Part shown: piece after piece, positions 15,033 through 37,832 of the stretch | How the letters are laid out: each line of letters begins with the position of its first letter | Numbering within the stretch: position 1 is the stretch's first letter | From: a virus | Direction: 5' to 3' (one strand) | DNA: 64,000 nucleotides | Virus record (IMG/VR): IMGVR_UViG_3300033489_000601 | Coordinates: 1,020-65,019 of that record | Position numbers and translations under genes: made by a program | Notes under the pieces: generated by a model | Seen by the model: the letters and a program-made list of their open reading frames with translations, nothing else | Databases searched by the model: none | Told to the model about the DNA's origin: nothing

Positions 15033-16760
15033 TCACGCAGCAATCCAGCACAATTGCAGCCGCACGTTGGTTGCCGCGCCCGCAACACCGCCTCCGCGCG
15101 CGCACTTGATCGACATCTTTTCGCCAGCACCCCACGTGATCGTTCCGGCGACGGCGGCCGTGTTGTCGGTCGCGGCGTTATCAAGCGTGATCGTCATCGC
15201 CGTGTCCGCTGGTGCTCCACCAGCGGTGCCAACCTGGATCGTGAATGTCGTAGTGCCAGCGCCGACGCCGGCAACCTGCGCAATCTCGAGCGTGCCCGCG
15301 AGTTTGAGCGAGACGCCGGTCGGGTTTTTTATGTACAGCTGCGTCGCGGTGATGGTCGATACTGCGGTTCCAGGTGGCCAAATATAGGCGGGCCCAAAGG
15401 ACCCCGTGCCGAGGCTTGACGCACCGAACGACATCACGATCTTCCCGACCGCCGCCGCGACCGCCGTGTCACGGGCGCCCTTCGTGTCGATGTCGTCCAC
15501 TGCGCTTGGGTCGGCAACCTTCGCACGCCCCGCGCCGTCGCGGATCATCGGAGCGCTCGCCGTGGCCGCGGAGGTCATCGCGACGCCGCCGACGCTCAGC
15601 GTGTCCGCAGCGAGATTTACGCCGGCCTGCATCGTCAGAGCCGCCGCTGTCAGGATGAACTTGTCGACGCCGCCGACGCGCCCGCGGAGGTCAACCGCGG
15701 CGTTGAACCCCAGCGAATTCTTGGTCGTCGACCAAGAAATCGTGCTGGACGCGCTGAGGTAGAGGCACGTCTGAAACACACCGAGGGCGGTGCCGCCCTT
15801 GAAACTCAGGGTGCCGCTCGACACGCCGTCGCTGCCCAGGTTGAGGGTTAGCGCGCCGGGTTCGTCTGCGTCGACGTCGCCGCCTTCGCCCGCTGCGAGC
15901 TCTAGCTCTCCGCCGATCGAGCCTGGCTCGCCTTTCTGCCCGGAGAGCGTCGTCTTCAGGCCAGCGCCTACTACGACGGGGGCCTTCCCGATCGTGGTCG
16001 CGCCGGCGGCGCTGAAGGCGATGTTGCCCGCGGTGTAGACCGGGGTGATCGTCGTCAGATACGTGTAGTGAGTCGAGGTCAGGAAGCCCGCCGTCGAGCC
16101 GTCCGCGTTGGCATGGAGTGTCCCGCCGAGCTGCGTACCATGGGCGTGCACGTGGTCAGCGCGCGCGGCCGTCGTGCCTACACCGATGGCTGCGGTGCCC
16201 ACCGCAGCGGGGAGCGTGGAGCTCAGTGCGAGCGCAGCGGCGAGCGCGGTGTTGAGCGTCCGAAGGTTCGCCGCGTGGTCGCCCTCCCAGTTGCGCCATG
16301 TTTCGGTGCTGAACTGCGAGGTCTCGCGCCAGGCGAGATCGTGCAGGCCCTGCGAGCTCAGGATCTCGAGCCCGCATGCCGTGTCGCGCACGTCCTCGCT
16401 CTGCGCGCCGCCCTTCACGCCGTTGTTGACGATGAGCTGGCAGAGGTACTTGCCCCACGTCGAGGGCATGACGAAGCTCGCGGGGGCCGAGTTGCCGCGG
16501 TAGACGAACGCCGTGTACGTGATGGTCGAGCCGGTGGGGCCGACGATGCTCGTTTCCTCCTCCGTCCACGCGCCGCCGGGTCCCGTCCATCCCTCCGGGT
16601 ACGAGTAGAACTCGATGCGCGTGAGCGGCGTACCGGGCCACGCGACGGTGCTCTCGTACGAGAACTGGATCGTCTCGCCGCCGGTGACTGTGCGCGCGCC
16701 TGCGACAGCGGCGTCGCCGTTGACCGAGGTCAGAAGTCGAGCATACGGCGTCGTGGTCAT
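15033..16760 (-). CDS. Tail fibre / receptor-binding structural protein
   Basis: 575 aa Gly/Ala/Thr-rich; AARADHVHAH repeat-like fibre motif; at the distal end of the tail module. Confidence 0.65.
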   Translation of the reverse strand: MTTTPYARLLTSVNGDAAVAGARTVTGGETIQFSYESTVAWPGTPLTRIEFYSYPEGWTGPGGAWTEEETSIVGPTGSTITYTAFVYRGNSAPASFVMPSTWGKYLCQLIVNNGVKGGAQSEDVRDTACGLEILSSQGLHDLAWRETSQFSTETWRNWEGDHAANLRTLNTALAAALALSSTLPAAVGTAAIGVGTTAARADHVHAHGTQLGGTLHANADGSTAGFLTSTHYTYLTTITPVYTAGNIAFSAAGATTIGKAPVVVGAGLKTTLSGQKGEPGSIGGELELAAGEGGDVDADEPGALTLNLGSDGVSSGTLSFKGGTALGVFQTCLYLSASSTISWSTTKNSLGFNAAVDLRGRVGGVDKFILTAAALTMQAGVNLAADTLSVGGVAMTSAATASAPMIRDGAGRAKVADPSAVDDIDTKGARDTAVAAAVGKIVMSFGASSLGTGSFGPAYIWPPGTAVSTITATQLYIKNPTGVSLKLAGTLEIAQVAGVGAGTTTFTIQVGTAGGAPADTAMTITLDNAATDNTAAVAGTITWGAGEKMSIKCARGGGVAGAATNVRLQLCWIAA

Positions 16761-16786
16761 GGTAGGGTGCTCGCGGAGGTGAGGAG

Positions 16787-17212
16787 ATGGAGAAGCGTGA
16801 AGATGATGAGGTTGCGCGTGCTGTCGCCGCGGAGCGCGAGCGGTGCGCGGGGATCGTGGAGCGCGGCGACGGGCATCGGCGCGCTGACATGGCGGCTGAG
16901 ATCCGCGCGGGCCATCCAGCCGCGGTCACGACGCCCGCGCGCTACGTGCCGACGCCCGCCGCGCTCCGGCGCTCGACGCTCGCGGCTACGCTTCAGCTGT
17001 CGCGTGTGAGCGCTGCGTTCGCGGCTGAGGCCTTCGAGGAAGAGACCGCGCTGGTGACCGCAGCCCTCGAAGCGGCTCGCCGCATGCAGCCGCCGGCGGC
17101 GCCGCTGAAGGTCGCCTCGCTCGAGACCATCGTGCGCATCCTCGCGACCATGGCGCTCCACGCGTCGCCGACCCCGGCTGACGCTCGTCTGCTCTTGCAG
17201 TTTATCGGGTAG
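16787..17212 (+). CDS. Hypothetical protein (antisense insert)
   Basis: TAGGGT then GGAGGTGAGGAG SD and ATG; AERERCAGIVE motif common in phage proteins. Confidence 0.65.
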   Translation: MEKREDDEVARAVAAERERCAGIVERGDGHRRADMAAEIRAGHPAAVTTPARYVPTPAALRRSTLAATLQLSRVSAAFAAEAFEEETALVTAALEAARRMQPPAAPLKVASLETIVRILATMALHASPTPADARLLLQFIG

Positions 17213-17312
17213 AGTTCCAGCCGCGGCTGTAGGCACTCGCACGCGGATAGCACAGATCCGCGTGCTGGGATAGGGCTGCGTGCGAGGGGTGGGGCTGTGG
17301 TACCGTAGCGGG

Positions 17313-17519
17313 ATGGCCCTTCAGATCACACGCGCCCACGTCCAGATGTTTGTCGAGCCCGGCGCCACAGCGCCGGTGATCGTGGACTACGTGCTGAGCG
17401 ACGAGCGCGACGCGGCGCTCGGCAAGCGGGGCACGATCCAGCTCGTGGTACCGGCGGGGGTGCGCTCTCAGCTCGCGACGCTCGTCGAGGACACGCTGCG
17501 CTCGGTGGGCATCCTCTAG
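17313..17519 (+). CDS. Hypothetical protein (antisense insert)
   Basis: 68 aa, GC3 bias; downstream of an operator copy (17215-17232) and a 10-bp inverted repeat. Confidence 0.55.
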   Translation: MALQITRAHVQMFVEPGATAPVIVDYVLSDERDAALGKRGTIQLVVPAGVRSQLATLVEDTLRSVGIL

Positions 17520-17875
17520 GGGTAGACCATCTTGATCTCGGTCGCGCCGAACGCGGGGATCAGCCGCACGACGAGATCGCGGATGGGGCGTTGAAAAGCG
17601 AACTCGCTGAGCTTCCAGCCAGCCGGAACGCTGAAGGTCAACGCCGGGTCGGACGTGCTCGCCGAGAAGTCGATGGTCTGCGTCCACACGCGTCCATCCA
17701 CGGCCTCGAACAGGTACGAGAAGACGCCCGGCGCGGTCTGATGGGTCCGGAAGCGCACGAGCGGCACGACGGCGTGGAACGCGCTCACCGATCGAACGAG
17801 CGCGACGCGATCCACGTGGTCGGGCGGGATGGGCGCGGCTGAGATGAAGGTGAAGTTTTCCTTGAAGTCGGGCAT
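17516..17875 (-). CDS. Hypothetical protein
   Basis: GAGGT SD, 119 aa, GC3 bias. Confidence 0.65.
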   Translation of the reverse strand: MPDFKENFTFISAAPIPPDHVDRVALVRSVSAFHAVVPLVRFRTHQTAPGVFSYLFEAVDGRVWTQTIDFSASTSDPALTFSVPAGWKLSEFAFQRPIRDLVVRLIPAFGATEIKMVYP

Positions 17876-17972
17876 CGTGACCTCGTTTGGGTGGGTGAGG
17901 GAGTCGCCAGCCTATCAGGTTGCTCGGCGGTTTTCTTGGCCGGTGCTGAGGGCTCGAGCGAGCGTCCGCGGC

Positions 17973-20064: not shown

Positions 20065-20292
20065 CTACGGCTGAGGCGCCGCGCCGTCTACAGCCGCGGG
20101 TGTAGAACAGCACGCCGCGAGCTCGTGCAGCGTCTCCGTCGTCACGCGCGCGCCGGGCCAGCGCTTCCCGCGCGTGACCTCGCGGCACTCCGCGCAGCGC
20201 GTCCCCGCGAACACCCGCGTGAGACCGCAGCCGACGCAGAGCCCGCGAGCTCGGCGAGAGGCGTATAACGCGCGGGCGTCAGCGGGGGTCAT
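20065..20292 (-). CDS. Small zinc-finger protein
   Basis: GLCVGCG...RCAEC; an operator copy (20088-20105) lies within its 3' end. Confidence 0.55.
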   Translation of the reverse strand: MTPADARALYASRRARGLCVGCGLTRVFAGTRCAECREVTRGKRWPGARVTTETLHELAACCSTPAAVDGAAPQP

Positions 20293-20465: not shown

Positions 20466-20857
20466 ATCGCCTCGTAGGGGCCGAGGTACGCCTCGACGCC
20501 GGATGCGAACGCGAGCCCCGTGCACAGCGCCTTCGAGCGCACGATGTCCTCGCTCACGCTCCACGTCGCCGCGATAGCCGTCACGCGCGCCGCGTCCGGC
20601 GGTGACGTGCCGATGGTGACCGACTCGTTCGCGCCCGTGGCGGCCGCCTGCCCAACCCAATCAGCCGCGGTCAGCGCGCGGTAGGGCGGCGCGAGGCCGG
20701 CGGCGAAGATGCGCGCGGTCACCGCGCCGCCGTACACGTTCAGGCCGATGCCGAGCGCGCACGTGTAGACCGCGGCCTCGGTGATGCTCTCCGCGAGCGC
20801 CACGGCGGCGCAGCGCGCTCGTGCGGTGTCGTCGATGTAGATGTTCTCGATGGTCAT
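20462..20857 (-). CDS. Hypothetical protein
   Basis: 131 aa, ATGA-coupled to the methylase. Confidence 0.6.
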   Translation of the reverse strand: MTIENIYIDDTARARCAAVALAESITEAAVYTCALGIGLNVYGGAVTARIFAAGLAPPYRALTAADWVGQAAATGANESVTIGTSPPDAARVTAIAATWSVSEDIVRSKALCTGLAFASGVEAYLGPYEAM

Positions 20858-22746
20858 ATCGCCTCAAGAAAAAGGGAGCGCTGGGCCTTCGCGGGCGCGC
20901 GCAGACAGGCGGGCGAGAACCAGACCCGCTCGCGCTTGGCGTTCTCGTTCTCGCCCGCCGCCTGATTCGAATAGCCGCCCGCGGCTTTCCACGCCTCGAC
21001 GGTCCAGCCCTGCCCCTCGAGCGCGACGTGTTCGACGTCGTAGCCGCAGAGCGCGATCCGCAGGTCCGGTCGCGCGCCGTTCTCGATGCACCACGCGCGC
21101 ACGCGAGCGCTCACGGGCTCGGTCCCGTAGAGGTCGTCGAACCCCTCGTAGGGTGGGTCGAGCACGACGCCCGTTACGCCGTGCTTCCAGGTCACCGCGG
21201 GCGTCAGGATGCGCGCGAAGTCGCCGCACGTGACGCGGGTGTATCGCAGCCGAGCGGAGAGTGCCGCGAAGACTTCGTAGAGGGCGGAGCGGTGGGCGGA
21301 GCTATTCACTCCCGCGCCGGAACGCGGAGAGCCTGAGCCGTCACCTCCACCCAGATGCGGAAGTTGCCGCCGCATCCCGCCGCGGTGGACGCCCTTGCCG
21401 ACGTTGACGTACGCCGCTTCGCGCTCGTTATGGTAGACGCCGCCGAGGTCGGGCATCTGGCGGCGCATTGCCTTCGAATGAACGCCACGGCCATCGGCGC
21501 GACCGCTGCCATGGTTTCCGCTGTTGCTATTGAGCAGGGGCGCCTGCTTCGACTCCATGCGCTCGCACCACCCGCTGCCGATCCACGCGCTCAGCCCCCA
21601 CACCCACCAGCCTGCGATCATCGCGTTGTAATGCCGCGGGTCCGCCTCCAGACGCGCCGCGAGCTTCTTCTTGATGCCCGCGAGGTAGCGGTGCCGCGCG
21701 TGCAGATCCGTCTCGTTCACGGGCCAGTCGGCTGCCGTCGCGACCGCCTCCGGGTTCGCAGCCGTGGCGCGCCAGAAGTTGCAGTTGTGCGAGGCTAACC
21801 CTTCCGCGATGAAGGTGCGCGACGTCGTAGACAGCGCGACCACCTCCTGCGGACCAAGGTATTCCTTCGAGACAAGACCAACCGCGTTGTGCTCCCTACC
21901 GTACAGCGAAACTGATTCAACAGCTTCGGCGAACTTTGCGAGCAGCCGATGAGGACGAATCAACATTAAGAATCGAAACTGTTCACGCATCCCGCCAGTT
22001 ATGGTGATGTGCTTACATTTCCGCTGCCGATCGGTCCTGAAGGAAAACCCGCGGCGCGCGAGCGCCTCCACGACCTCTGACAGCACAATGCCCTGGTTTT
22101 GCGACATGCCCACACGAAGCCCTGGCCCTGCATTTAGGCAGCCTTCGCCGTCAAAAAGCCCAGCGAGCCACCCCGCCTCCCATGACTCTTCGCGCGTGAC
22201 AACAGGAGCAGCCTTCAGAACCCAACTCCGCTGCGTGGAGCGGTTGGCTGCTAGATTTTTCGTTTTCACCCATCGCCAACCACGGCCCGTTTTGCCAGTG
22301 CAATGACTGCCAGTCAGCCAACAGTGGTCTTCGGATGCGATGACGACGGTCCCGTCGTCGAACGTCAGTCGATAACTTGGAAGCACGACGCGCGGGGCGT
22401 CGATGACCGTGGACCGTTGCCAGTGACGGTAGCGCGCGGGCGAGCGAAACCCCGCCCGCGCCGTGCCTGAGTTTTCTTCGTCGAAGGCGAGCAGGCGCTC
22501 GCCCGCGCAGAGCGTCCCCGCCGCTTTCCACGTCATGTCCTCCATGAGGACGCGTGTGTCTGGTGCGACACACAGATGTCCGTCGACGTCGTTGACCGTC
22601 TCCACGCGCGGCTCGTGCGGCCGTCCGAGGAGCACCGCGAGCGAGCCGGCGAAGGGCTCGACGTAGTTCACGACCTCGCCGAGGCGCGACCATATCAGCG
22701 GCGCCGCGCGCGATTTTCCACCAAACCAAGGGAAGGGAGCTTTCAT
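20854..22746 (-). CDS. D12/Dam-class N6-adenine DNA methyltransferase containing an intein
   Basis: FPWFGGKS, YVEPFAGS (SAM binding), VNDVDG, VVLDPPY (catalytic); interrupted at residue 59. Confidence 0.9.
   Translation of the reverse strand: MKAPFPWFGGKSRAAPLIWSRLGEVVNYVEPFAGSLAVLLGRPHEPRVETVNDVDGHLCVAPDTRVLMEDMTWKAAGTLCAGERLLAFDEENSGTARAGFRSPARYRHWQRSTVIDAPRVVLPSYRLTFDDGTVVIASEDHCWLTGSHCTGKTGRGWRWVKTKNLAANRSTQRSWVLKAAPVVTREESWEAGWLAGLFDGEGCLNAGPGLRVGMSQNQGIVLSEVVEALARRGFSFRTDRQRKCKHITITGGMREQFRFLMLIRPHRLLAKFAEAVESVSLYGREHNAVGLVSKEYLGPQEVVALSTTSRTFIAEGLASHNCNFWRATAANPEAVATAADWPVNETDLHARHRYLAGIKKKLAARLEADPRHYNAMIAGWWVWGLSAWIGSGWCERMESKQAPLLNSNSGNHGSGRADGRGVHSKAMRRQMPDLGGVYHNEREAAYVNVGKGVHRGGMRRQLPHLGGGDGSGSPRSGAGVNSSAHRSALYEVFAALSARLRYTRVTCGDFARILTPAVTWKHGVTGVVLDPPYEGFDDLYGTEPVSARVRAWCIENGARPDLRIALCGYDVEHVALEGQGWTVEAWKAAGGYSNQAAGENENAKRERVWFSPACLRAPAKAQRSLFLEAI
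21784..22572 (-). mobile_element. Intein (263 aa) with LAGLIDADG homing-endonuclease motif
   Basis: Begins CVAPDTRVLM, block B ASEDHCWLT, WLAGLFDGEG, ends FIAEGLASHN followed by Cys+1; removal restores NDVDGHL-CNFWRA. Confidence 0.92.
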
Positions 22747-22856
22747 CGCCGCCCCTTCCGCACCCGCTTCACCCGCGGCTTCTTCGGCGGCACCACGACC
22801 ACCGTGCCGCTTCCCCCTGTCACCGCATCCCCCAAAGCCTTCAGCACCGCCCTCAT
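22743..22856 (-). CDS. Small basic peptide (37 aa)
   Basis: GGAGGT/GAGGAG SD; MRAVLKALGDAVTGGSGTVVVVPPKKPRVKRVRKGRR; ATGA-coupled to the methylase. Confidence 0.5.
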   Translation of the reverse strand: MRAVLKALGDAVTGGSGTVVVVPPKKPRVKRVRKGRR

Positions 22857-22876
22857 CTCCTCTACCTCCGCGGCCA

Positions 22877-22906
22877 CCCTATCACAGGTTACAACCGCGG
22901 CTGTAG
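22877..22906 (-). promoter_or_regulatory. Operator (22889-22906) plus TAGGGT -10-like box driving the methylase cassette
   Basis: Minus strand reads CTACAGCCGCGGTTGTAA-cctgtga-TAGGGT-ggccgc-GGAGGT. Confidence 0.65.
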
Positions 22907-23284: not shown

Positions 23285-24313
23285 TCAAGGTACGATCGTG
23301 CCAATCGGCGTGATGCCCAGCATCCCCACGCCGATCGTGAAGGGGCCCGCGCTGCTCCCCGCCCCACCACCCACGCTCCAGGTCGCTACACCCGCGAACA
23401 CTCGAGCCGCGAGTTCATTCGCTTTTCTGCGGGTCTCAGCGTCCGCGGCGGCATCCTCCGTCAACACAATCGTGTAGTGCCGCTTCGACGACGCCCACAG
23501 CGGAAACGGGATCGTCGTTGCGCTCGCGCCCGCCGCGTGCGTCTGCGTGATGACGCCCGTGAACGTCCGGTACGCGGGGTCGTTCAGCACGTCGCCGTCG
23601 CTGAACAGCACGCCCGCCGCGGTCACAGCAACGGCCTCCGTGCGCGTCGGCGTCTCGCTGTCAATCACCACCACATCGCCCACGAGGAGGCGCGTCGTCG
23701 CGATCTGCTTCGTGATGTCGAACTGCGTCTCGTCAACGGTCGACTCGTTCGGATCCAGCGCCTCATACCGCAGCGTGTGCGCGGCCGGCGCGGCGCCCGT
23801 CACGCTGTCGAGGAGGCAGATGAACTTCCGCGGCACGCTCGTCGCCTGAAGGTTCATCGGTGCATCGCCGAGCGCCTCGGGGTAGTTCACCGCCTCGTCC
23901 GACGGGGCCGCGCGCACGAAGAGGAAGTCGTCGCCGAACGCCGCGCCGAATAGCTCTTGCAGCACGATCGCGCATGCCCCGCGGGGGAGCAGCCGCGCCG
24001 CCGCGAGCGCCTCCCGCCGGTCGGTGATCGTGTCCGTTGGCGCAGGCACGAGGCCGTACTCGCGCTCGCGCGAGGGGATGAGCTCTAGCGCGCGGCTCGG
24101 CCACTGCTGATCGCACGCGTGCTCGAGCAGGACCGAGGCGCGCCCGCAGGCCATCGCACGCGCGTAGATGCTGGCCTCGACGTGCGTGCCGGCGTCGGTC
24201 GAGAGCTGTCCGCCGACCGAGGCCACCATCTGGTCGTAGAAGAGCTGCGCGCGCGAGGGCTTCCCGCTGAGCTTCAGCAGACCGAGCGGCGTGAACCAGG
24301 AGAGGAGGGGCAT
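23285..24313 (-). CDS. Baseplate protein, Mu gp48/YmfQ (DUF2313)-like
   Basis: LIPSREREYGLVPAPTDTITDRREALAA motif; downstream of baseplate J. Confidence 0.75.
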   Translation of the reverse strand: MPLLSWFTPLGLLKLSGKPSRAQLFYDQMVASVGGQLSTDAGTHVEASIYARAMACGRASVLLEHACDQQWPSRALELIPSREREYGLVPAPTDTITDRREALAAARLLPRGACAIVLQELFGAAFGDDFLFVRAAPSDEAVNYPEALGDAPMNLQATSVPRKFICLLDSVTGAAPAAHTLRYEALDPNESTVDETQFDITKQIATTRLLVGDVVVIDSETPTRTEAVAVTAAGVLFSDGDVLNDPAYRTFTGVITQTHAAGASATTIPFPLWASSKRHYTIVLTEDAAADAETRRKANELAARVFAGVATWSVGGGAGSSAGPFTIGVGMLGITPIGTIVP

Positions 24314-24818: not shown

Positions 24819-25037
24819 ATGTCCTACGTGAAAGCTGAAGACCTGGTGACCGTGGTACGGCTCGTGGTCAGCGACGACGCGCCACGCGTGTACGACGAGA
24901 CCATCGCGTTCGTGGATGAACAGATGCGCCTTGCGCTGTTGACGCCGAGCGCGGTGCTGGCGTGTGACCGCGGCGCCTCTTATGTGAGCGCAGCCGCTCA
25001 CGCCGACGTTGCCCTCGACGCTCGTCACTTCTCGTAG
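24819..25037 (+). CDS. Hypothetical protein (antisense insert)
   Basis: MSYVKAEDLVTVVRLVVSDD...; strong GC3 bias in this frame; no SD. Confidence 0.5.
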   Translation: MSYVKAEDLVTVVRLVVSDDAPRVYDETIAFVDEQMRLALLTPSAVLACDRGASYVSAAAHADVALDARHFS

Positions 25038-26551
25038 AAAGCCAAATCCCCCAGCGTCAGCAGCCGCGCGCTCACCGCTGCCACGCCCACCGTCGTCTGC
25101 CGCGGCAGCGTCTCGGGGATCGCTATGCTCGCGTCGCCCACGAGCCCGCTGTCAAACACCGGGTTCAGCAACATCAGGTTGTTGATCGCGCTCGGCCAGC
25201 CCTCGGTCGGCGACGGCGCGCGGCGCTGTCGGAATCCAGGGTCGTAGAACGTGGACACCTGCTCGCCGGGACCGAGCGTCGCCATCGCCTGGAGCACAGG
25301 CACGGTGAGGTCGTCGAGCGAGTCACTCCACGGGCTCACGAGCGCGCCCACCGAGGGCTCAAAGGTCGTGTCGCTCGCGCCGTTCGCGGTCTCCACCTCG
25401 AGCAGCCACTCCATGTCCGCGACCTGCTCCGTCACGGTGAGGAGGCGTTTCTTCCTCCACCGGCCGATGCGCCGCGGGGAGAGGGCCGCCGTCGCGTCGA
25501 CCTCGAAGAGTCCGATCGTCTGCCCTACCTGCGGCGTCGACGTCGCGGTGCCCGTGCCGACCTCGAACTCCGTCGCGCTGATAACGCCCGTCACGCGCAC
25601 CTGATCGGCCGCGATGAACTCCGGCCACGGCGTCGCGTCGGCCCATCCTGTCGCACCGCGCGCCCATGTGACGCTGACGCCGACGTCGATGGGCTCAGCG
25701 ATCCACGTGCAGCCGAAATGCCCGTCGTCCGCCTGGATGCCGCCGTTCAGGGTCGCCTCGATGAGCGCCTCCTGCGTCGTCGTCGTGAAGCGCTCGCCCC
25801 CGAGCGTCGCCGCGCGGAGCGACACGAGAACCGCGGTCGTCCCCGTGCTTTTGATCGCGGGGTAGGTGAACACCTCCTCCACGGTCATGCCCGCGATCGT
25901 GCGCACCATGCGGCGGATCTCGGCGTCGTTGCCGGCGGCGGGCGGGTTCGCACGGCGCGCCTCGATGGCCTCGATGTACTCCGCGTCCGTCGCTTCCTCG
26001 CGCCCGCCGCTGATACCGCTGCCGTCGGATGCCTCGGTCACCACCCCGTCCTTCGCGAGCCCCGCGGAGGGGGACGTCCAGACGAGGCGCGTGCCGGGGT
26101 CGAGGTTGCCCGCCGGCCCTGGATCGACGCTCTCGATCGGGACGGGCGTGCTGCTCGTGTACAGCGCGGTCTCGGTACAGATGAAACGCGAGCCCGTGGA
26201 CGACTCGGTGAGTTCGTCGCCGATAAGGATCGTCGCGCCGCCGACAGAGGTCGTGATCGTGAAGAGCCCCGACGCCTTCGTCGCGGGCGGTCGCTCGACG
26301 CCCTCGCTCGCGCCCGTGCGCTCGAGCCGCTCGCCCGTCTGCCCGCGCAGGTTCGTGGCGCGCCCGATGACCGTGGTGTTGTTCATCACGATCATCATCG
26401 CGTCCGCGAGGAGCGAAGCGTCGTGATCGGGCAGCGTGTTCGGCCCCGTGTCCGCGTCCGGTATGCGGTTCTTGTAGTCGCGGAGGTACAGCCGCTTCTG
26501 CGTGTCGCGCGCGAGCACACGCACGTCGTCGGGGAGGTCGTCGAGGGCCAT
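25025..26551 (-). CDS. Baseplate J-like protein (Mu gp47)
   Basis: RPPATKASG..IT, GDEL, ESVDPGPAGN, GGREEATDAEYIEAI..RRANPPAAGN..VEEVFTYP..GT. Confidence 0.88.
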   Translation of the reverse strand: MALDDLPDDVRVLARDTQKRLYLRDYKNRIPDADTGPNTLPDHDASLLADAMMIVMNNTTVIGRATNLRGQTGERLERTGASEGVERPPATKASGLFTITTSVGGATILIGDELTESSTGSRFICTETALYTSSTPVPIESVDPGPAGNLDPGTRLVWTSPSAGLAKDGVVTEASDGSGISGGREEATDAEYIEAIEARRANPPAAGNDAEIRRMVRTIAGMTVEEVFTYPAIKSTGTTAVLVSLRAATLGGERFTTTTQEALIEATLNGGIQADDGHFGCTWIAEPIDVGVSVTWARGATGWADATPWPEFIAADQVRVTGVISATEFEVGTGTATSTPQVGQTIGLFEVDATAALSPRRIGRWRKKRLLTVTEQVADMEWLLEVETANGASDTTFEPSVGALVSPWSDSLDDLTVPVLQAMATLGPGEQVSTFYDPGFRQRRAPSPTEGWPSAINNLMLLNPVFDSGLVGDASIAIPETLPRQTTVGVAAVSARLLTLGDLAFYEK

Positions 26552-26603
26552 GGGGTAGACCTACAGGCGCGGGTGTTATAGGCTGCGCGGCGGAGGTTGG
26601 GTG

Positions 26604-27017
26604 ATGAAGATTGAGGAGATGATGATGCGGGCGGAGGAGGGCGCGGCGCGAGCCGCTGACTTAGCGGCGGACGAGGACGACGATGGCCTTGAGGTCGGCG
26701 ATGTTTTGCGTGACCGGCGCGAACATGCAGCCGCAGCAGGGGCGCTCGCCGCCGACGTGCTAGCGCTGATCGCGGAGGTCGAGGGGCTTACGAACCTCGT
26801 GTGCAAAGCGGGTACAGAAATCGTCGCCACGCTGAAGGAGCGCGACGCCGCGCTGCTGAAGGCGCAGATCATCGAGGACGGCGCGGCGGATACCGTCATC
26901 ATCTCGCACGAGGAAGCCCGCGCGGTGGCCGCCTTCATCCGCGGCAGCGGATACGATGGCCCTGTGTGCTATGGCGCTCTGGAAGAGCGCCTCAGCGCCG
27001 CTCTCGCCGCCCGCTAA
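26604..27017 (+). CDS. Hypothetical protein (antisense insert)
   Basis: Operator 26561-26578, then TAGGCT, GGAGGTTGGGTGATG; helical protein. Confidence 0.7.
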   Translation: MKIEEMMMRAEEGAARAADLAADEDDDGLEVGDVLRDRREHAAAAGALAADVLALIAEVEGLTNLVCKAGTEIVATLKERDAALLKAQIIEDGAADTVIISHEEARAVAAFIRGSGYDGPVCYGALEERLSAALAAR

Positions 27018-28176: not shown

Positions 28177-28224
28177 GGATCTACAGGCGCGGTTGTAGTA
28201 GGGTCAGAGGCGGAGGCTGGGAGA

Positions 28225-28629: not shown

Positions 28630-30042
28630 TCACAAATACTCCGCATCCCCAAACACTAGATCCCCCGGCCGGTGCAACGATAGCTCGGTCGTCGTGCCGT
28701 CCGCGCCGCGCCGGAAGGTGACCTCGCCGATCCACAGCGGGCCCTTCACGTCGAGCTCGTCGTCCATCACCTCGACCATCGTGTCCACCGCCCACACGCT
28801 GCGCTCGCCGGGCCGCGTGAGGCTCGGGGCGCTGTGGCCCTGCACGGTGACGACGTACTCCCACCCCTCGCGGCGCGCGTTCATGCACAGGCGCTTCGCC
28901 TCGTAGGCCGCCTGCGCGTCGCTCTTCACCTCGCGCTCCGCCTCGACCTTCACGAGCGACAGCGGGAAGCCCAGCGCGACCATCTCGTCGTCGATGAACT
29001 CGCCCCGCAGCGAGCCCCGCCCGCTCGCGCCCTTGCCGCCACGCCCATGCACGACGTAGCGCGTGTGCCGCCCCGTGGTCTCGTTGCGATGCCGCACGCG
29101 CAGCACGTTGACCGCGAGCGCCGCCGTCGCGCGGGCGTTCCCCTGCACCTGCGTGTTGCCGTCCGGCGTGCCGCCGCGCTGACGCAGGAGCCGAGCAACG
29201 GGCCGCGTCGAGGTGTTCGGCTGCGCGAGGACGAAGGTGTTCTCGCCCGCAGCGCTGAAGAGAAACAGGCCCGCCTTCGCGAGGTGACTCTTCAGCCATG
29301 CGTACCGCTGGTCGCCGGCCTTGATTTTCAGGGCCTTGTCCTTCGACGGCGAGGGGGTGACCGCGGTCTGCTCAGGCACCGCGTTCGGCGTCTCGACCAC
29401 GGTCACGCCCTGGCGTACGAGCTGCGTCGGCTTCCCCGGCGAGACAATCGCGAGCGTCGGCCCCGCCGTGCCCTTCGCCGCGAGCGTCTGCGCGTCGAGG
29501 CTGGCCTTGATTCGCTTGAGCTCCGCGGTCACAGCAGACGCCCGCAGCGCCGCCGCGCTCGTGCCGCCCCCGCCGAGCGGCACGCCCGCAATGCTCGAGC
29601 GGTTCGCTGCGTTGTCGCCGAACAGCGTGAACTCTTCGATTCCCGCCGCGGTCATCTGCTCGGTGACGACCTGCGTCCACGACATGCCGCTGCACGAGCG
29701 ATCGGCCTCCGCGTCGGCGTCGATGAGCGGAGCAAGCTGGTCGCGCCCGCGAAGTTGTAACGTCGTCGCGCCGCTGCCGTCGCTCGCGGTGTAGCCGTCC
29801 GTACGCCCGGTCATCTGCGCGACGTCGCCCACGTACAGCACGAACGGCGTGCGCGCGGGGAAGCGCCGGGCGAGCGCGGCCGCTGTCTCCCCCGAGCCGA
29901 TCGTCACGCTGAACGCCGCCGGCTGCGTGGTGAAGCTGAGCTTGACCTCGTAGGTCTCGACGATGCGGCACGTCTGCCCCGCGAGGTCGAGCCGCACGAA
30001 GTCGTCGACCGCGCCGGAGGGGGAGATGGAGAAGAGCGTCAT
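28630..30042 (-). CDS. Baseplate hub / tail protein (Mu gp44-like)
   Basis: YEVKLSFTTQPAAFSVT, LYVGDVAQMTGRTD, LRGRDQLAPLIDA; C-terminal VWAVDTMVEVMDDELD..G.LWIGEVTFRRGADGTTTEL. Confidence 0.85.
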   Translation of the reverse strand: MTLFSISPSGAVDDFVRLDLAGQTCRIVETYEVKLSFTTQPAAFSVTIGSGETAAALARRFPARTPFVLYVGDVAQMTGRTDGYTASDGSGATTLQLRGRDQLAPLIDADAEADRSCSGMSWTQVVTEQMTAAGIEEFTLFGDNAANRSSIAGVPLGGGGTSAAALRASAVTAELKRIKASLDAQTLAAKGTAGPTLAIVSPGKPTQLVRQGVTVVETPNAVPEQTAVTPSPSKDKALKIKAGDQRYAWLKSHLAKAGLFLFSAAGENTFVLAQPNTSTRPVARLLRQRGGTPDGNTQVQGNARATAALAVNVLRVRHRNETTGRHTRYVVHGRGGKGASGRGSLRGEFIDDEMVALGFPLSLVKVEAEREVKSDAQAAYEAKRLCMNARREGWEYVVTVQGHSAPSLTRPGERSVWAVDTMVEVMDDELDVKGPLWIGEVTFRRGADGTTTELSLHRPGDLVFGDAEYL

Positions 30043-30099
30043 GAGGGGCTACAGGCGCGGGTGGAGGTGTGGTAGAACGGCGGCGGAGGTTGAGAGAGT

Positions 30100-30477
30100 A
30101 TGGGACGCATTCACCATCACGCGATCGTGGTGACCAGTTACGGAGACGACCGAACGGAGCAGGCACACGCTGAGGCCAAGCGAATCGGGTGCCTGGTTTC
30201 AGATGTCGTTGTTGCTCTAACCAACGGCTTCTCCACGTTTATGGTTGGCCCAGACGGCTCGAAAGAGGACTGGAAAGAGTCGGACAAGGGCGACGAGCAG
30301 CGGGCGCGGTTCATTAAATGGCTCCTCGCTCAGCGTTTCAGTGATGGGAGTTCGCCTTACTCGTGGGCGGAAATCGCATACGGCGAGGAAGAGGGCGGTC
30401 CCGCTGAGATCGTCAACAGCAGCCAATGGGCTGACGAAGTGGGCGCCGCTCACGCCGCCCCAACCCCGCCCACGTAA
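30100..30477 (+). CDS. Conserved-type phage hypothetical protein (antisense insert)
   Basis: Operator 30049-30066 and GGAGGT SD; HHHAIVVTS...NGFSTFMVGPDGSKEDWKESD motif. Confidence 0.75.
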   Translation: MGRIHHHAIVVTSYGDDRTEQAHAEAKRIGCLVSDVVVALTNGFSTFMVGPDGSKEDWKESDKGDEQRARFIKWLLAQRFSDGSSPYSWAEIAYGEEEGGPAEIVNSSQWADEVGAAHAAPTPPT

Positions 30478-31397
30478 TACACCACCGCCGTCCCCTGCGG
30501 TATATCCAGCGCATCGGGGAACGCGTTCATCTTCAATAGCTCGACCGCTCGCGCGCTGTCTCCGTATACAGCCGCCGCCACCTGCGCCACCGTACCGCGC
30601 GCCTGCGTGATGTACGTGTCCGTCGGCTGGTCACGCTCCTGCGCGTCGTGCGCGAGCGTTCTCATCGAAGCCCACGTCTCGCCGAGCGCGTCGAGCAGCG
30701 CGTACGACTGCGGCTGATTCAGGCTGCGGCACGTCGCGCTGATCGTGCGGCAGCGCTCGGCCGCGAGTTCGGCCTTCTGCGCTACGGTCGCTGTGTAGAG
30801 GTCGTCGCCAGACGCGACCGCCTGGAGGTCAGCGATGAGCGCGAAGAGGCCGTCAAACTGCACTTCCTCCGCGAGGAGGAGCTTATCCGCCGCCGCCGGG
30901 TCGGTCACGTCGGGGAAGAGCCCCGCCGTCGAGCGCGTCGCGACGATGAGCTTCAGCGTGTCGAGCGACGTGAGGATCTGCGTGCTTGTGGTCACGAGTT
31001 TGTCCGCGAGGAACTGCTGGCTCTGGTCCTCGAGGAACGTGAAGCTCACGTCGTAGCCGCTGCGCGCCTTCGCAACGAGGTCGTCCTGCCACTCGATGCA
31101 CGTCGCGCTCATCGTGCCGATGTGCGGGATCACGAGGTCCCACGGCTGCCCCCCTTCGGCGAGCGTGCGGAGCGAGGCCATCGTCTCGAGCAGGAGCGGG
31201 TACTTACGGAAGGTCTCGTGTGCCGGGACCGAGACCTTGACCTCGTACAACTTCCGGCCGAGCCGCTCGACGGCCCCGCCGGGCGCGTAGGGGTACTCGT
31301 GCACGTGGTGCCGCAGGCTGCCCTTCAGCGAGAGGCTGCGCGTGGGGAACGCGAAGCCCGCGAAGGAAAGCTGGAGGAGGCGGTCGAAGTAGGCCAT
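30450..31397 (-). CDS. DNA circularization N-terminal domain protein (Mu gp43-like) with LysM-like C-terminus
   Basis: SFAGFAFP...G.LRHHVHEYPY..GGAVERLGRK; C-terminal VAQVAAAVYGDSARAVELLKMN...IPQGT. Confidence 0.85.
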   Translation of the reverse strand: MAYFDRLLQLSFAGFAFPTRSLSLKGSLRHHVHEYPYAPGGAVERLGRKLYEVKVSVPAHETFRKYPLLLETMASLRTLAEGGQPWDLVIPHIGTMSATCIEWQDDLVAKARSGYDVSFTFLEDQSQQFLADKLVTTSTQILTSLDTLKLIVATRSTAGLFPDVTDPAAADKLLLAEEVQFDGLFALIADLQAVASGDDLYTATVAQKAELAAERCRTISATCRSLNQPQSYALLDALGETWASMRTLAHDAQERDQPTDTYITQARGTVAQVAAAVYGDSARAVELLKMNAFPDALDIPQGTAVVYYVGGVGAA

Positions 31398-31418: not shown

Positions 31419-31628
31419 ATGAACGACCCTACCTACGCGCGGACAGATTGCGGGCGATATGTCCTAAACGTTGACCACGCGAAACAGCGGATGCTTCTCG
31501 ATGAAGGCGGGACGCGGGTGTGGTTCGATGAGCCCCGCCTGCGCGGCATCACCATCGGAGGCCGAGCGCTCGCGTCGTGGCTCACTTCCGCCCCCGCTCA
31601 TCCACACCCGCCGCCGCGCCTGCGCTGA
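31419..31628 (+). CDS. Hypothetical protein (antisense insert)
   Basis: 69 aa after an AT-rich spacer; 3' end overlaps the tape measure stop. Confidence 0.45.
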   Translation: MNDPTYARTDCGRYVLNVDHAKQRMLLDEGGTRVWFDEPRLRGITIGGRALASWLTSAPAHPHPPPRLR

Positions 31629-34339: not shown

Positions 34340-34960
34340 CTACGCCCCGTCGCTCGTTGATGTCTCGCTCGAGTTCTCTGGCTTCTTTACCTCGTCCAGT
34401 GAGGCCGAGGTAAAGGGCAACTTGGACTCGAGTAAGTTCATATACTGGACGCACAAAGTACGCACAAAGCTCCTGCGCGTAGCGGGCGCCCATTGCTCGA
34501 AAGGGAGTTCAGCGGGGTCTTCCTCCTTGACCGCGTGCGCAATGACCTCGTTGATGAACTCCCCGATATCAAGGCCGCGCTTCCGAAAGCTGCACGCGTC
34601 CTGATGCCGCTGCTGCGCCTCGAAGAGGAACGCGATGCGATCGCGGTCGAGCCCCGTCGTGCGATCGAGCATCTGCTCGATGCTATCGAACGCGCGCACG
34701 GGCTTCGTCGGCTCGTCGGGGTCGAGACACGCCGCGAGCAGCGTATGCACCCACAACCCAAGCTCATAGAGCTCGTCGCCGCGCTTCGGCTCCTCCACGC
34801 CGCGCGCCTTCGCGAACGCCCGAGCGCCCACGAGCACGTCGGCCTCGTGCTCGCCGATGAGCGGCACGATATCCACAGCCCACGACGTCCCATCGATAAG
34901 CGCGAGATCGAAGCGCTGGCGCGCGAGCACCCCCCGCGCGACGTCTTTAAAGCGAGCCAT
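34340..34960 (-). CDS. Tail assembly chaperone
   Basis: 206 aa directly after the tube gene; helical. Confidence 0.65.
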   Translation of the reverse strand: MARFKDVARGVLARQRFDLALIDGTSWAVDIVPLIGEHEADVLVGARAFAKARGVEEPKRGDELYELGLWVHTLLAACLDPDEPTKPVRAFDSIEQMLDRTTGLDRDRIAFLFEAQQRHQDACSFRKRGLDIGEFINEVIAHAVKEEDPAELPFEQWAPATRRSFVRTLCVQYMNLLESKLPFTSASLDEVKKPENSSETSTSDGA

Positions 34961-34961
34961 G

Positions 34962-35333
34962 TCAGATCACCTGCGGTCGGCCGCTGCGGAAGGTGAATGA
35001 ACCCTTCACGACGCCTGTTTTTGAGGTCGTCTTCACCTCAGCCTCGGTGATCTTCGCATCGGGCAGCTTGTAGGTCTTGCCGCCCGTGAGCGCGCCGATC
35101 GACACGTACGCCTGCGACAGCATGAGGCCGACCATATCGATCTCGGTGCCCGTCACGGGCGTGACCGTGGAGAACGAGCCCTCGACGGTGACGATGCCCG
35201 TGCTCTCGCCGAGCACCTCCTCGAAGCCGACCTGCTGCTCGCCGTTCGTCATGAACTTGAGCGACGCCTCCTCAATCTCAGCAACTTTCTTGTTGTTGAT
35301 ATAGAGGGGCATCGCCCGGAATTGCTTGGCCAT
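34962..35333 (-). CDS. Tail tube protein
   Basis: 123 aa beta-rich protein following the sheath gene. Confidence 0.8.
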   Translation of the reverse strand: MAKQFRAMPLYINNKKVAEIEEASLKFMTNGEQQVGFEEVLGESTGIVTVEGSFSTVTPVTGTEIDMVGLMLSQAYVSIGALTGGKTYKLPDAKITEAEVKTTSKTGVVKGSFTFRSGRPQVI

Positions 35334-35375
35334 ATCTCGCTCTTCTTTCTATCGGCTCGTGGTTATGGCCGCGGT

Positions 35376-36914
35376 TCAGGACCCGTATTGCTGCTGTCGC
35401 ACGCTGACCTTGATCGCGTGCTGGAGCGGCAGCGGAATCGCCGGCACGATGCTCTCGAGCCAGCCCGTCCCGCCGCCGTTCGCATTGAAGGTGGTGACGG
35501 GCGGATGCGACTCGACCTGGGTCAAGATGTTGTCGTCCTGGAGCGTGAGGAGCTGCGAGGTGACCTCCGCGTTCCACAGGCTCGGCGTCGCGACGCCCGC
35601 CTTCGGAGTCGCCTCCTCTGCCGCGGGGTCGTCGCGCACGTACGGATTCGCAATCACGAAGTCGGTCGTCCACACGAGTTGCAATACGTCGCGCACGTAA
35701 TCGGGCACGACCGCCTGCGCCGTGTCGAGCGTGTTGTAGTTCGCCACGGTCCCCGCGCTGTTCTGCGAGCGCGTCGTTATCGAGCGCACGATCACCGCGT
35801 CGCCGTTGTCGAGCGTATCGATCGGCGTCACGCTGCCGTCCAGCGCGCTGATCTGCTGCGCCAGCGTCGGCCGCGAGGGGCGATAGCGCTGCCCGCGGAT
35901 GCCGGGGAGCGCCACGCCGTCGTATCCCGCGTTCGGGTTGTCCTGCTCGATGAGCGTGCGATACGCAGCGAAGACCGCGGCGATCTCGCTCGGGTGCGAT
36001 TCGCTGTCCTTCATCCACAGGCATTGCATGCGCGCGTTGTTCGCGGTCGTCTGTGCCACCGAAGTGGCCGTGCTCAAGAGGTTGGAGCCGAGGGCGCAGA
36101 CCGCGTGCTGCGTCTTGTTCACGGTGGGCCCCGCCATTGCGTCGAGCTGCACCTCCCACGCCGCGATGCTCGTCGCGTCCTGCTGCGCGAAAGCAATGCG
36201 ATGAAAGCGGCTGTTCGCGATCGTCGCGAGAGCCGTCGTCATGGTCTCCACACCCGCGCCGTCGACGAGCCGCACGCCATTCCCCGTGGTCGAGTCGCCG
36301 GTAACCGCGGTCCCGCCGGCGAGCGTTAGCGTCAGGCCGCTCGGCGCGCCGGAGAGATCTTTGAACACGATCGTGTTCAGCGCACGCACCCCAGCGCTCC
36401 TATGCGTTCCGGTTAGCACGCCCGCGATGTTATCCGCCGAGCACACGCCGCGCGTGTTCGCGAGGATCGCCGCCTTCATGGCCGCGGCGACCGTCGTAAC
36501 GTTGTCCGCCGCGCCGACGGCGCTCTCGTGTAGCTCGCCGCCGATCCACAGGCGGATGACGCCCGCCGTCGTCCACGTGCCCGCTACGGTCGCCGTGAAG
36601 GTGCCAGCGACAGCCGCGCCGTTCGGCGTCACCGCGAGGCCATAGAGATCGACGTTGGGGATACGCAGGGCAGCGAGGAGCATCCGATTGAGCTCGGAGC
36701 CCGCCCCCGCCTTCGTGTCTGCTTCCGCCGCGTCGGGACAGGCGAAGACCTCGGTGTCGAGGGTCGCCGTGCCCACGGCCGCGGTGTCCTTCAGAGCCAC
36801 CACGAGGAGCTTGAGTCGCTGATCGCCGATGCTCGCGGCGCCGACGCCGAACTGCGTCTCGCCGAGGAAGCCGGGGACCTTATAGCTATCCTGAACCGTC
36901 GGAATGATGCTCAC
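35376..36914 (-). CDS. Contractile tail sheath protein (Mu gpL-like)
   Basis: YKVPGFLGE N-terminus, EAD..AGAGSEL..M, TLTA..AG..GN-like segment, LDGSVTPI, IVRSITT, LDT..V..YVR. Confidence 0.9.
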   Translation of the reverse strand: MSIIPTVQDSYKVPGFLGETQFGVGAASIGDQRLKLLVVALKDTAAVGTATLDTEVFACPDAAEADTKAGAGSELNRMLLAALRIPNVDLYGLAVTPNGAAVAGTFTATVAGTWTTAGVIRLWIGGELHESAVGAADNVTTVAAAMKAAILANTRGVCSADNIAGVLTGTHRSAGVRALNTIVFKDLSGAPSGLTLTLAGGTAVTGDSTTGNGVRLVDGAGVETMTTALATIANSRFHRIAFAQQDATSIAAWEVQLDAMAGPTVNKTQHAVCALGSNLLSTATSVAQTTANNARMQCLWMKDSESHPSEIAAVFAAYRTLIEQDNPNAGYDGVALPGIRGQRYRPSRPTLAQQISALDGSVTPIDTLDNGDAVIVRSITTRSQNSAGTVANYNTLDTAQAVVPDYVRDVLQLVWTTDFVIANPYVRDDPAAEEATPKAGVATPSLWNAEVTSQLLTLQDDNILTQVESHPPVTTFNANGGGTGWLESIVPAIPLPLQHAIKVSVRQQQYGS

Positions 36915-37384
36915 TTGACCGCTCCTTTATCGATGGGGGCAGCCGCGGGGGGGCCGCTGATCTGCCACTCCGCGACGGGCGGCGCGTCGCCGTCGTGCTC
37001 CTTCGCCCAGGCATCAATGACCTTCGACCGCGCCACGCGGAGCGCGTCCGCGTAGGGCGCGAGCACCTTCAGCCCACCGCGCTTCGCCGTGCTCTCCTCG
37101 ACCGCGAGCAATTCGCCCGTCGCGATCATGCCGCGGTGGTAGTTCGTGTCCTCGATATCGACGGGGCTCAGGTCGAACACCCAGCGCACCTCGACGCGGT
37201 GACCGCGGATATCATTCGCCTGGCGCTTCTCGGTCACCTTGTCGTCGCGCGTCGCGCCGATGTACCGCACGAAGGGCGAGTGCTCCGGGTCGTACTGCAC
37301 CGCGCCGCACGGGTGCCCGTTGTGGTCGAGCGGCGCCGCGAACGGATTCGGGACGACGCGCAGGAATTTCTTTGAAACAAGCAT
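36911..37384 (-). CDS. Hypothetical protein in tail region
   Basis: 157 aa; GTGA/ATGA coupled to the sheath gene. Confidence 0.65.
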   Translation of the reverse strand: MLVSKKFLRVVPNPFAAPLDHNGHPCGAVQYDPEHSPFVRYIGATRDDKVTEKRQANDIRGHRVEVRWVFDLSPVDIEDTNYHRGMIATGELLAVEESTAKRGGLKVLAPYADALRVARSKVIDAWAKEHDGDAPPVAEWQISGPPAAAPIDKGAVK

Positions 37385-37436
37385 GGGTGTCCCTTCGCGG
37401 TTATGGTAGGGTCGCGGGGAAGGAGGTTTCGTTGTT

Positions 37437-37832
37437 ATGAGTACTGATTACCGGCTCTATTGCAGAGACTGCGATGACCAGATGGAGGTGTGGAACATCC
37501 GAGATCCTTCGGTGCTCCGCGACGTTTGGAACAAGCGCGAGGCGATTGCCGCGCTGGACGGACTAACCGACGCGATCGCCACGGAATCAAACCCTAGCGA
37601 TCCGTTGCCCGTGTGGTTCTTCGTCACGCACAAAGGACATAACGTCGTCGTGCGCGATGAATATGGCGCGGACTTTGGCTCATGTGTGAGTCGCGTGAAG
37701 TGCAAGTCCTGCGGCGAAAGAACCAGATGCGGGCTGGCGTATGGCCATGCAGGCGATTGCGCTCCAGTTGCCCCTACTCATTCGGCAGATCCCCCACGCT
37801 CATCGTCTCCCCCTGCTCGTTCGTCACCGTGA
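37437..37832 (+). CDS. Zinc-binding hypothetical protein (antisense insert)
   Basis: TAGGGT and AGGAGGT SD; YCRDCD...CKSCG...C..H...C. Confidence 0.7.
   Translation: MSTDYRLYCRDCDDQMEVWNIRDPSVLRDVWNKREAIAALDGLTDAIATESNPSDPLPVWFFVTHKGHNVVVRDEYGADFGSCVSRVKCKSCGERTRCGLAYGHAGDCAPVAPTHSADPPRSSSPPARSSP

Follow-up and report, generated by a model that had tools for sequence, protein, structure and literature searches.

Why should the tail operon of a phage carry, at one gene junction after another, small genes that are read in the opposite direction? The question is raised by a 64-kb stretch of DNA (here called the window; GC content 68%) from IMG/VR virus record IMGVR_UViG_3300033489_000601, a 65,112-bp record of soil origin whose completeness is estimated by CheckV at 74%. 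The window comes from a temperate myovirus whose virion module, of Mu type, lies on the minus strand, and ten plus-strand open reading frames (ORFs), designated here by their first nucleotide, lie between its minus-strand tail genes (Table 1). These are very probably real, autonomous accessory genes in turnover hotspots. The fuller account, in which opposite-strand accessory cassettes occupy junction hotspots and a subset of them is wired to the immunity/early operator of the phage, is one that we hold with somewhat better than even confidence.

The antisense genes of the tail operon

An open frame says little in DNA of 68% GC, and all six frames of each segment were therefore scored by codon usage, against a model built from 15 confidently identified structural genes. 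The ten ORFs, present at the starts given in a preliminary description of the window, occupy true gaps between minus-strand tail genes that are GC-rich at third codon positions (high GC3), and the frame given there is the best of the six in every case. Scores are clearly positive for seven of them and negative for 19049, 31419 and 37437 (GC 58–66%). Six of the ten have a GC content of 58–64% compared with 67.6%, and the other four are not different. A codon-usage gene caller finds the minus-strand head block (37774–49925) uninterrupted and the tail block (14498–37384) gapped.

The tail-to-tail arrangement with the upstream structural genes is also as originally described, with 3′ overlaps of 4, 7, 13, 4, 28, 47 and 59 bp and one 12-bp gap. 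Stop codons interlock at 17516 (CTAG, the 4 bp that gene 17313 shares with the 3′ end of 17516–17875 on the minus strand) and at 27014 (CTAA). Convincing terminators were not found behind the plus-strand genes, whose 3′ ends run into the next gene, and a standard scan returned no sigma70 promoters. A perfect GGAGG stands 7–10 nt ahead of the ATG in seven of the ten antisense genes. The preliminary description had treated the lack of a visible Shine-Dalgarno (SD) sequence as distinctive of the structural genes at these junctions, but this does not hold: with strong GGAGG/GAGG/GGAG-type motifs counted, 22 of the 34 minus-strand genes called in 14498–49925 likewise have none. SD-less structural genes would be preceded by about 400 nt of untranslated antisense sequence.

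The antisense proteins had no match in Pfam, PHROGs or PADLOC except for that of 30100, which aligns over residues 1–108 with positions 1–108 of the 116-position profile of phrog_11375, a family of unknown function (E 6.3e-34). By tblastn and gene context, its homologs in Omegavirus mycobacteriophages such as Optimus belong to a group of small non-structural genes located past the lysis cassette, and they occur in Caulobacter phages as well. An AlphaFold2 model of the 30100 protein (pLDDT 86.6) has a ferredoxin-like alpha/beta fold; it gave no PDB match with E ≤0.001, only generic ferredoxin-like/PII-like folds. The Atlas yielded for these proteins only a weak match, of 37437 to a viral hypothetical cluster. 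Within the set of ten only 26604 and 28225 resemble each other, and then weakly; both products are coiled-coil proteins with the C-terminus LSAALAAR.

Genes 17973 and 19049 adjoin the tail-fibre region. Read by eye, the 17973 product has an N-terminal hydrophobic stretch resembling a transmembrane helix, and that of 19049 is a probable lipoprotein, Cys-rich and with a signal peptide ending in LSAGC. Phage T5 has a lipoprotein gene, llp, which lies beside the receptor-binding protein gene in the opposite direction and whose product blocks the receptor. Both llp and 19049 are backward genes for (in our case probable) lipoproteins by a tail-fibre/receptor-binding region, with no sequence relation between them.

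Gain, loss and replacement at the junctions

Relatives of the phage were graded by the identity of their baseplate J protein to that of the window. A search of genome contigs found no further relatives and one of metagenome contigs found a single short one (41%), and IMG/VR yielded only relatives with 37–41% J identity, five of which (L001–L005) keep the gene order of the window: sheath, tube, tape measure, gpN, gpP, gp45-like, gp46-like, J and gp48-like. In L001–L003 the baseplate genes abut or overlap and nothing lies on the opposite strand; L004 and L005 have a single backward gene, ahead of the tape measure. L012 (59%) and L011 (49%) have no inserts. Closer relatives with 73–78% J identity, found via a protein database, do carry backward genes: L008 at five to six junctions, L014 at three, and L009, L010, L013, L015–L017, L019 and the P0003 contig at one, the gp46-like/J junction. 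Two gaps in L008 where no gene was called contain, respectively, a membrane-type ORF of about 58 aa behind a cassette (6452–6676) and a Cys-containing ORF of about 90 aa behind TGTGGTACCTT (11534–11946), so automatic calls undercount such genes.

What occupies a given junction changes from phage to phage. At the gpN/gpP, gpP/gp45 and tape measure/gpN junctions the genes of the window, L008 and L014 are mutually unrelated; the last of these holds in L008 an 89-aa antisense gene unrelated to 31419. The exchange can be sharply bounded. Over 1.38 kb of J, and on into the opening ~50 nt of the backward gene, L016 agrees with L014 at 99%; identity then drops to 39–78% further into that gene and returns to about 89% in the gp46-like gene; L013, too, loses its identity with L014 just within the antisense gene, beside the cassette. 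The proposal in the preliminary description that the cassette acts as an insertion unit, with different genes at the same junctions in related phages, is thus borne out by comparative genomics, both by the unrelated genes in L008 and L014 and by the mosaic boundary at the cassette. On these alignments the junctions are hotspots of gain, loss and replacement, and exchange would take place between two conserved limits, the cassette and the end of a structural gene.

The gene at the gp46-like/J junction (26604) behaves differently in that every placeable member of its family has the same position and orientation, and it is conserved in frame in at least ten contigs. Shared features are an N-terminal M-x-I/L-E/D-E-M-R-K-R-A-E, a central AADVLALIAEVERL and a coiled-coil ERDALKAEVERLR. 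Its protein retains only 25–42% identity among phages that share 73–95% in the J and gp46-like proteins on either side; between L009 and L010, for example, J is 88% and the gp46-like protein 93% identical and the antisense protein 34%. A profile search of 1.8 billion representatives returned the seeds and only four more clear members (E about 1e-8), and no GenBank phage gave a tblastn match to a family member. A relation to the Ead/Ea22-like family (PF13935) is at most a weak lead, since the window protein has no match to it and one of 11 members has a match at E 0.0016.

The promoter and ribosome-binding unit

As first described, CTACAGGCGCGGKTG occurs exactly at 26561, 28181 and 30049, and GGAGGTTGGGTGATG exactly at 26592 and inverted at 52433–52447 (0.12 expected). 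The cassette at 26552–26603 contains a 47-nt repeat that is 79% identical to 28178–28224. Behind these similarities lies a more general unit: the pattern TAGRNY-N4-9-GGAGG-N4-12-RTG is present seven times in the window versus 0.38 in shuffled sequence, and all seven matches are at called gene starts (12804, 16787, 26604, 28225, 30100 and 37437 on the plus strand, 22856 on the minus strand). Five of the seven have TG two bases upstream of the box (TGTGCTAGGGT, TGGTAGGGT, TGTGGTAGAAC, TGTGATAGGGT). By its sequence, the “TAG box” of the preliminary description is a −10 element of the extended type (TGTGnTAGGGT), and the unit consists of the extended −10, 6–7 nt, GGAGG, 7–10 nt and ATG. Transcription is predicted to start at or just ahead of the SD, which would leave a very short leader. 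Extended −10 elements of sigma70 promoters can function without a −35, and because none is needed, a promoter fits into the 15–57 bp between divergent start codons. At 24819, CATGTGCTAAAAACTCCTATG also reads as an extended −10, and its mRNA is possibly leaderless.

The TGTGnTAnnnT form recurs in relatives (TGTGCTACGGT, TGTGCTACAGGT, TGTGTTACACT, TGTGGTACCTT), where the 30-nt intergenic control region is 90–97% conserved, compared with 68–76% at third codon positions of J. The unit is not confined to antisense genes. A sense-oriented copy at 22857–22906 stands before a 37-aa ORF and a methyltransferase ORF, and its counterpart in L009, L010 and L014 is an orthologous palindrome, perfect in each, followed by TGTGCTACGGT.

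Two other places in the window resemble these cassettes. At 12732–12803, TGTGCTAGGGT, GGAGG and ATG 12804 are set between two copies of a different palindrome, GGTGCACC (12754 and 12782), divergent from a ribbon-helix-helix gene (12525–12731); this region is probably a second repressor–operator pair. In addition, 30052–30090 in the 30049 cassette has a 39-nt inverted similarity (77%) to 31584–31622 at the 3′ end of the tape measure gene, possibly a cassette relic.

The palindrome and its candidate regulator

An 18-bp palindrome, CTACAG-SCGCGS-CTGTAG, with arms CTACA/TGTAG, has CTACAGGCGCGGKTG as its left two-thirds. The window has 14 sites versus 1.0 expected from Markov shuffles, and 12 of them are intergenic, although only 11% of the window is non-coding. 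The palindrome is found at only three of the ten antisense genes (26604, 28225 and 30100); 16787, 19049 and 37437 have promoter–RBS (ribosome-binding site) modules that lack it. It abuts or overlaps the −10 at five cassettes, namely those at the three consecutive baseplate junctions, the one at 22889 before the methyltransferase and the one at 52460. Other sites stand in the control regions of a gene for a helix-turn-helix (HTH) protein and of the early rightward operon (a Cro-like ORF, a PD-(D/E)XK nuclease and AAA_24), and another precedes terL. The site at 9421 looks like chance.

Since both the HTH promoter and the early promoter have the palindrome at their core and a further copy precedes terL, it is most likely the operator of a phage repressor. 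The relatives point the same way. Its arms are kept in L008, L009, L010, L014 and L019 while the center varies (CTACAGGAGCTCTTGTAG, CTACACTTCAGGGTGTAG; L019 has the window-type CTACAGGCGCGGCTGTGG followed by TAGGGT), and the element is absent from the insert-free relatives. Its register against the −10 shifts, from just upstream of the −10 or over its TG in the window to covering the −10 to about +6 in L008. Conserved arms combined with a flexible position over the core promoter argue for a repressor operator rather than a promoter element or an activator site. We tried and rejected an RNA hairpin or terminator reading of the junction palindromes, which fold no better than shuffled sequences (z −1.5 to +0.6); strong hairpins are present only at 3142–3175 and 20080–20113. 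The description of these units as operator–promoter–RBS cassettes was therefore a sound one, given the recurrence of the palindrome at the HTH and early promoters, its conserved arms and its shifting position, and we judge it likely that the palindrome is a repressor operator.

The first candidate to bind it is the 76-aa product of an unannotated XRE-type HTH gene. The promoter of this gene, TTGACG-N18-TAGACC-N7-ATG, overlaps the palindrome at 2565–2582 and has no SD, so that the mRNA is apparently leaderless. The arrangement, which would be leaderless and self-regulated, resembles that of λ cI when expressed from PRM.

Under the account we favor, the tail/baseplate module is interrupted at its junctions by small autonomous opposite-strand accessory genes. 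The phage repressor would bind the palindrome and keep the palindrome-bearing cassettes shut while it is present, and these cassettes would otherwise fire along with the early genes; cassettes without the palindrome may be constitutive, like classic morons. Three to five cassettes are probably repressor-gated. Early expression of the palindrome-bearing cassettes is a more tentative proposition, to which we give slightly less than an even chance. Promoter activity, the binder of the palindrome and the timing of expression we infer from the DNA alone. The preliminary description had favored repressor-controlled early genes over lysogen-expressed morons for the antisense genes in general. That is possible for 26604, 28225 and 30100, as it is for the sense cassettes at 22856 and 52435, all of which carry the palindrome, but it does not extend to 16787, 19049 and 37437, which do not carry it and could equally well be lysogen-expressed morons of the Tab/bor type.

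Several observations weigh against this account. The palindrome has a degenerate right arm at 26561 and at 30049, whereas five sites carry an exact left 12-mer, CTACAGGCGCGG, always in one orientation relative to the adjacent gene start, so the site may be asymmetric. In the L014-type phages the junction “18-mer” may be merely a −10 (CTACAG) and an SD (TTGGAGG). The palindromes at 11358 and 61375 lie in coding regions, and these, like the one directly before terL, are hard to reconcile with a simple operator of early promoters. For the HTH protein, no homologs turned up in a set of 5.8 billion proteins; 24819 and 31419 are the weakest of the gene candidates; and a search of sequencing runs found the phage in only two DNA runs, both from one soil sample, and in no RNA run.

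As a separate observation on the palindrome sites, a 46-nt repeat (37 of 46 positions identical) is present at 3764–3809 (minus strand) and 49930–49975 (plus strand). It consists of the palindrome and then GTAGACGnnCGGAAGCCGnnGGCGG, and the two copies stop 6–12 nt short of the gene starts (3821 and terL 49925).

Alternative explanations

Might the antisense ORFs be open only by chance in DNA of 68% GC, with non-coding spacers making up the gaps? High-GC DNA does yield many long spurious ORFs, three of the ten have negative codon scores and most have no family assignment. Nevertheless, none of the other five frames ever outscores the chosen one, the SD and promoter modules are placed exactly where the genes begin, 30100 falls into a phage family (E 6e-34), the 26604 family is conserved in frame and the gaps are absent in relatives; such an artefact is largely refuted and hardly credible. 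Given genuine genes, they could be defence or conversion morons, expressed constitutively from the prophage, that shield the lysogen, for instance by preventing related phages from assembling or adsorbing, and backward orientation would keep their transcription out of the lethal late genes. Tab is such a case, a minus-strand gene with its own promoter within the late operon and expressed from the prophage (PMC10884400). The palindrome-free modules of 16787, 19049 and 37437, the membrane- and lipoprotein-like products of 17973 and 19049 beside the tail-fibre genes, the hypervariable gp46/J gene between near-identical flanks, as in arms-race genes, and the lower GC of six genes all agree with this. 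On the other hand, the three baseplate cassettes share the palindrome of the HTH/early promoters and would be silent in a lysogen if the immunity repressor binds it, the PADLOC search was negative, and the 30100 family is found among small non-structural genes in mycobacteriophages. We allow constitutive morons an appreciable minority chance.

It is also conceivable that the palindromes serve chiefly to silence the prophage, with a repressor bound at many intergenic sites blocking elongation of the late operon and the antisense promoters being secondary. The sites do line the whole late path (49932, 30049, 28181, 26561, 22889, 20088 and 17215), including the position before terL, the exact 12-mer keeps its orientation at five of them, and cluster A mycobacteriophage repressors act in this way at numerous sites (PMC9283540). 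Stoperators are asymmetric and monomer-bound, whereas our 14 sites are palindromic, and at the cassettes the palindrome abuts the −10 as a classical operator does, each site in L008 covering the −10 of the antisense promoter. Silencing of this kind is in our view rather unlikely. Still less probable is a timing device, an idea raised in the preliminary description, or bidirectional switch, in which early backward transcription collides with or delays late transcription until a later regulator shuts it off and permits or activates the structural gene, so that the tail operon would be expressed as separately timed units. Structural units do begin 4–12 nt from the palindrome without an SD, leaderless starts are apparently used elsewhere by the phage (the HTH gene), a symmetric palindrome could act both ways, and the same element precedes terL, which has no antisense partner. 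But the palindrome lies at varying distances (4, 6, 6, 9 and 12 nt) from the structural ATG, a consistent −10 toward the structural genes is not seen at the junctions, SD-less starts are the norm among structural genes here, and relatives build the same tails without inserts. Leaderless promoters for the junction structural genes were rejected on the first two of these grounds and are kept only as part of this low-probability alternative. In its most far-reaching form, one repressor-gated bidirectional system would cut the contractile-tail operon into separately started units, the palindrome switching between a backward early gene and an SD-less, possibly leaderless structural gene, and the fixed, hypervariable gp46/J gene would be an arms-race factor against the baseplates of competitors, a baseplate analogue of Tab; we regard this as speculative and improbable.

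Relation to known systems

The nearest known systems are morons, the PeSLs of T4-type phages, Aca-type repression and stoperators, and none of them matches in all defining features. Like morons of the lambdoid HK97/HK022 type, the antisense genes are extra genes between structural genes that are adjacent in relatives (contiguous in L001–L003, L011 and L012), apparently have their own promoters (an extended −10 type element with an SD at all seven pattern matches), differ in base composition in six of ten cases and vary between related phages. Their backward orientation within a late operon is shared with tab of the Mu-like Pseudomonas phage JBD26, an experimentally studied antisense moron (PMC10884400). 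They differ from morons in that at least six consecutive junctions are occupied, there are no terminators, control DNA is limited to 15–57 bp, the 3′ ends overlap, and several units share a palindromic operator with early promoters, which for those units argues against constitutive prophage expression.

PeSLs consist of a sigma70 promoter and a stem-loop terminator and are found, mostly co-oriented, in a virulent phage (PMC2839356, PMC4122927). In both systems a short conserved intergenic promoter motif recurs across the genome, flanking small, functionally uncharacterized genes of the variable regions. For PeSLs, gene shuffling through recombination at the motif has been proposed (PMC2839356, PMC4122927); in our phages, too, the motif bounds insertions, deletions and replacements among close relatives. 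The PeSL combination of early promoter and stem-loop terminator is not present here. Instead there is an extended −10 with an SD, plus a palindromic operator in some cases, the junction sites form no stable hairpins, and the genes are antisense in the tail operon of a temperate phage.

As in Aca-controlled anti-CRISPR operons (PMC9410906) and at CI/Cro operators, an inverted repeat overlaps a strong promoter (here a predicted one) of small accessory genes, and a phage-encoded HTH gene, in our case for a candidate repressor, has the site in its own promoter, suggesting autoregulation. In contrast to Aca systems, the candidate regulator gene is not beside the cassettes, and one type of site serves about 12 promoters genome-wide. 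The stoperators of cluster A mycobacteriophages likewise are present in many copies in intergenic gaps of the early and late regions of a temperate phage, but they are asymmetric and monomer-bound (PMC9283540), whereas most of our sites are dyad-symmetric and lie on promoters. The set described here is an unusually dense, fast-changing form of known moron-type add-on genes.

Virion module and neighboring genes

Pfam searches of the window identify an integrase (9909–10979), TerL (48462–49925) and a Mu-type portal (42720–44090; Portal_Mu, E 1e-72). DNA_circ_N/gpN (30450–31397) and Baseplate_J (25025–26551) score over threshold, and GpP-like (28630–30042) and Mu gp48 (23285–24313) are weak matches. 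The virion genes run in Mu order (portal, gpN, gpP, Baseplate_J, gp48) and so belong to a Mu-like tail/baseplate module, and the phage encodes an integrase instead of a transposase. Right after terL, within the packaging/head block, lies a T4-type RNA ligase gene of the Rnl1 family (47345–48448, minus strand). The 630-aa ORF at 20854–22746 (minus strand) combines a D12 adenine-methyltransferase N-terminus (residues 7–59) with LAGLIDADG (residues 189–251), and L010 has a plain 276-aa N6_N4 methyltransferase in its place; the ORF possibly carries an intein or a homing-endonuclease insertion.

Table 1. Cassettes, antisense genes, palindromes and candidate regulator gene in the window
Feature	Position	Strand	Details
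XRE-type HTH gene, unannotated, 76 aa	2324–2554	−	Pfam HTH_3 (PF01381), 32.1 bits vs gathering cut-off 23, E 1.2e-7
Palindrome	2565–2582		Divergent control region, HTH gene vs early rightward operon
Palindrome	3150–3167		Within 18-nt spacer of early promoter TTGACG-N18-TAGAGC; part of extended palindrome 3142–3175
Palindrome	3791–3808		12 nt ahead of gene 3821 (+)
Antisense accessory gene, 141 aa	16787–17212	+	Cassette CATGG-TAGGGT (16763–16768)-N6-GGAGG (16775–16779)-N7-ATG; no palindrome; no Pfam, PHROG or PADLOC assignment
Palindrome, degenerate	17215–17232		Upstream of 17313
Antisense gene, 68 aa, or 79 aa from GTG 17280	17313–17519	+	GC3 0.91, best frame
Antisense gene, 318 aa	17973–18929	+	GC 60.6%; start uncertain, ATG 17829 alternative
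Antisense gene, 103 aa	19049–19360	+	GC 58%; TTGACC-N19-TAGAAG and GGAGG, sigma70-like own promoter
Palindrome, perfect arms	20088–20105		Between two minus-strand genes of the tail-fibre region
Sense-oriented cassette	22857–22906	−	Palindrome 22889–22906, TGTGATAGGGT, GGAGG, ATG 22856
Antisense ORF, 72 aa	24819–25037	+	J/gp48 junction; 15-bp intergenic CATGTGCTAAAAACTCCTATG, no SD
Junction cassette	26552–26603	+	Palindrome 26561–26578, −10 TAGGCT 26579–26584, GGAGG 26592–26596
Antisense gene, 137 aa	26604–27017	+	gp46-like/J junction; 4-bp overlap (CTAA) with gp46-like stop
Junction cassette	28177–28224	+	Palindrome 28181–28198, −10 TAGGGT 28199–28204, GGAGG 28212–28216
Antisense gene, 130 aa	28225–28617	+	gpP/gp45 junction; coiled-coil C-terminal half
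Junction cassette	30043–30099	+	Palindrome 30049–30066, extended −10 TGTGGTAGAAC (TAGAAC 30073–30078), GGAGG 30085–30089
Antisense gene, 125 aa	30100–30477	+	gpN/gpP junction; phrog_11375 member
Antisense ORF, 69 aa	31419–31628	+	Tape measure/gpN junction; 21-bp AT-rich intergenic region, no SD
Antisense gene, 131 aa, Cys-rich	37437–37832	+	GC 58.6%; cassette TGGTAGGGT (37407–37412)-N9-GGAGG (37422–37426); no full palindrome
Palindrome	49932–49949		6 nt upstream of terL start codon (49925), head of packaging/structural block
Palindrome	52460–52477		Cassette of 52208–52435 (−), start GGAGGTTGGGTGATG identical to 26592

Implications

The usual picture of tail and baseplate operons is one of compact, co-translated blocks. 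In this soil phage clade, by contrast, backward genes are tolerated at almost every baseplate junction, each behind a promoter–RBS module of 35–57 bp, and one of them has become fixed. The cassettes amount to a compact natural set of promoter/operator parts for a high-GC host, and they carry fast-evolving genes of unknown function that can be screened for defence or anti-defence activity, with the gp46/J gene as first choice on account of its hypervariability amid near-identical flanks. The phages are also a natural system in which to study how late operons handle convergent transcription. If the operator reading is true, one operator could tie scattered accessory cassettes to the immunity switch.

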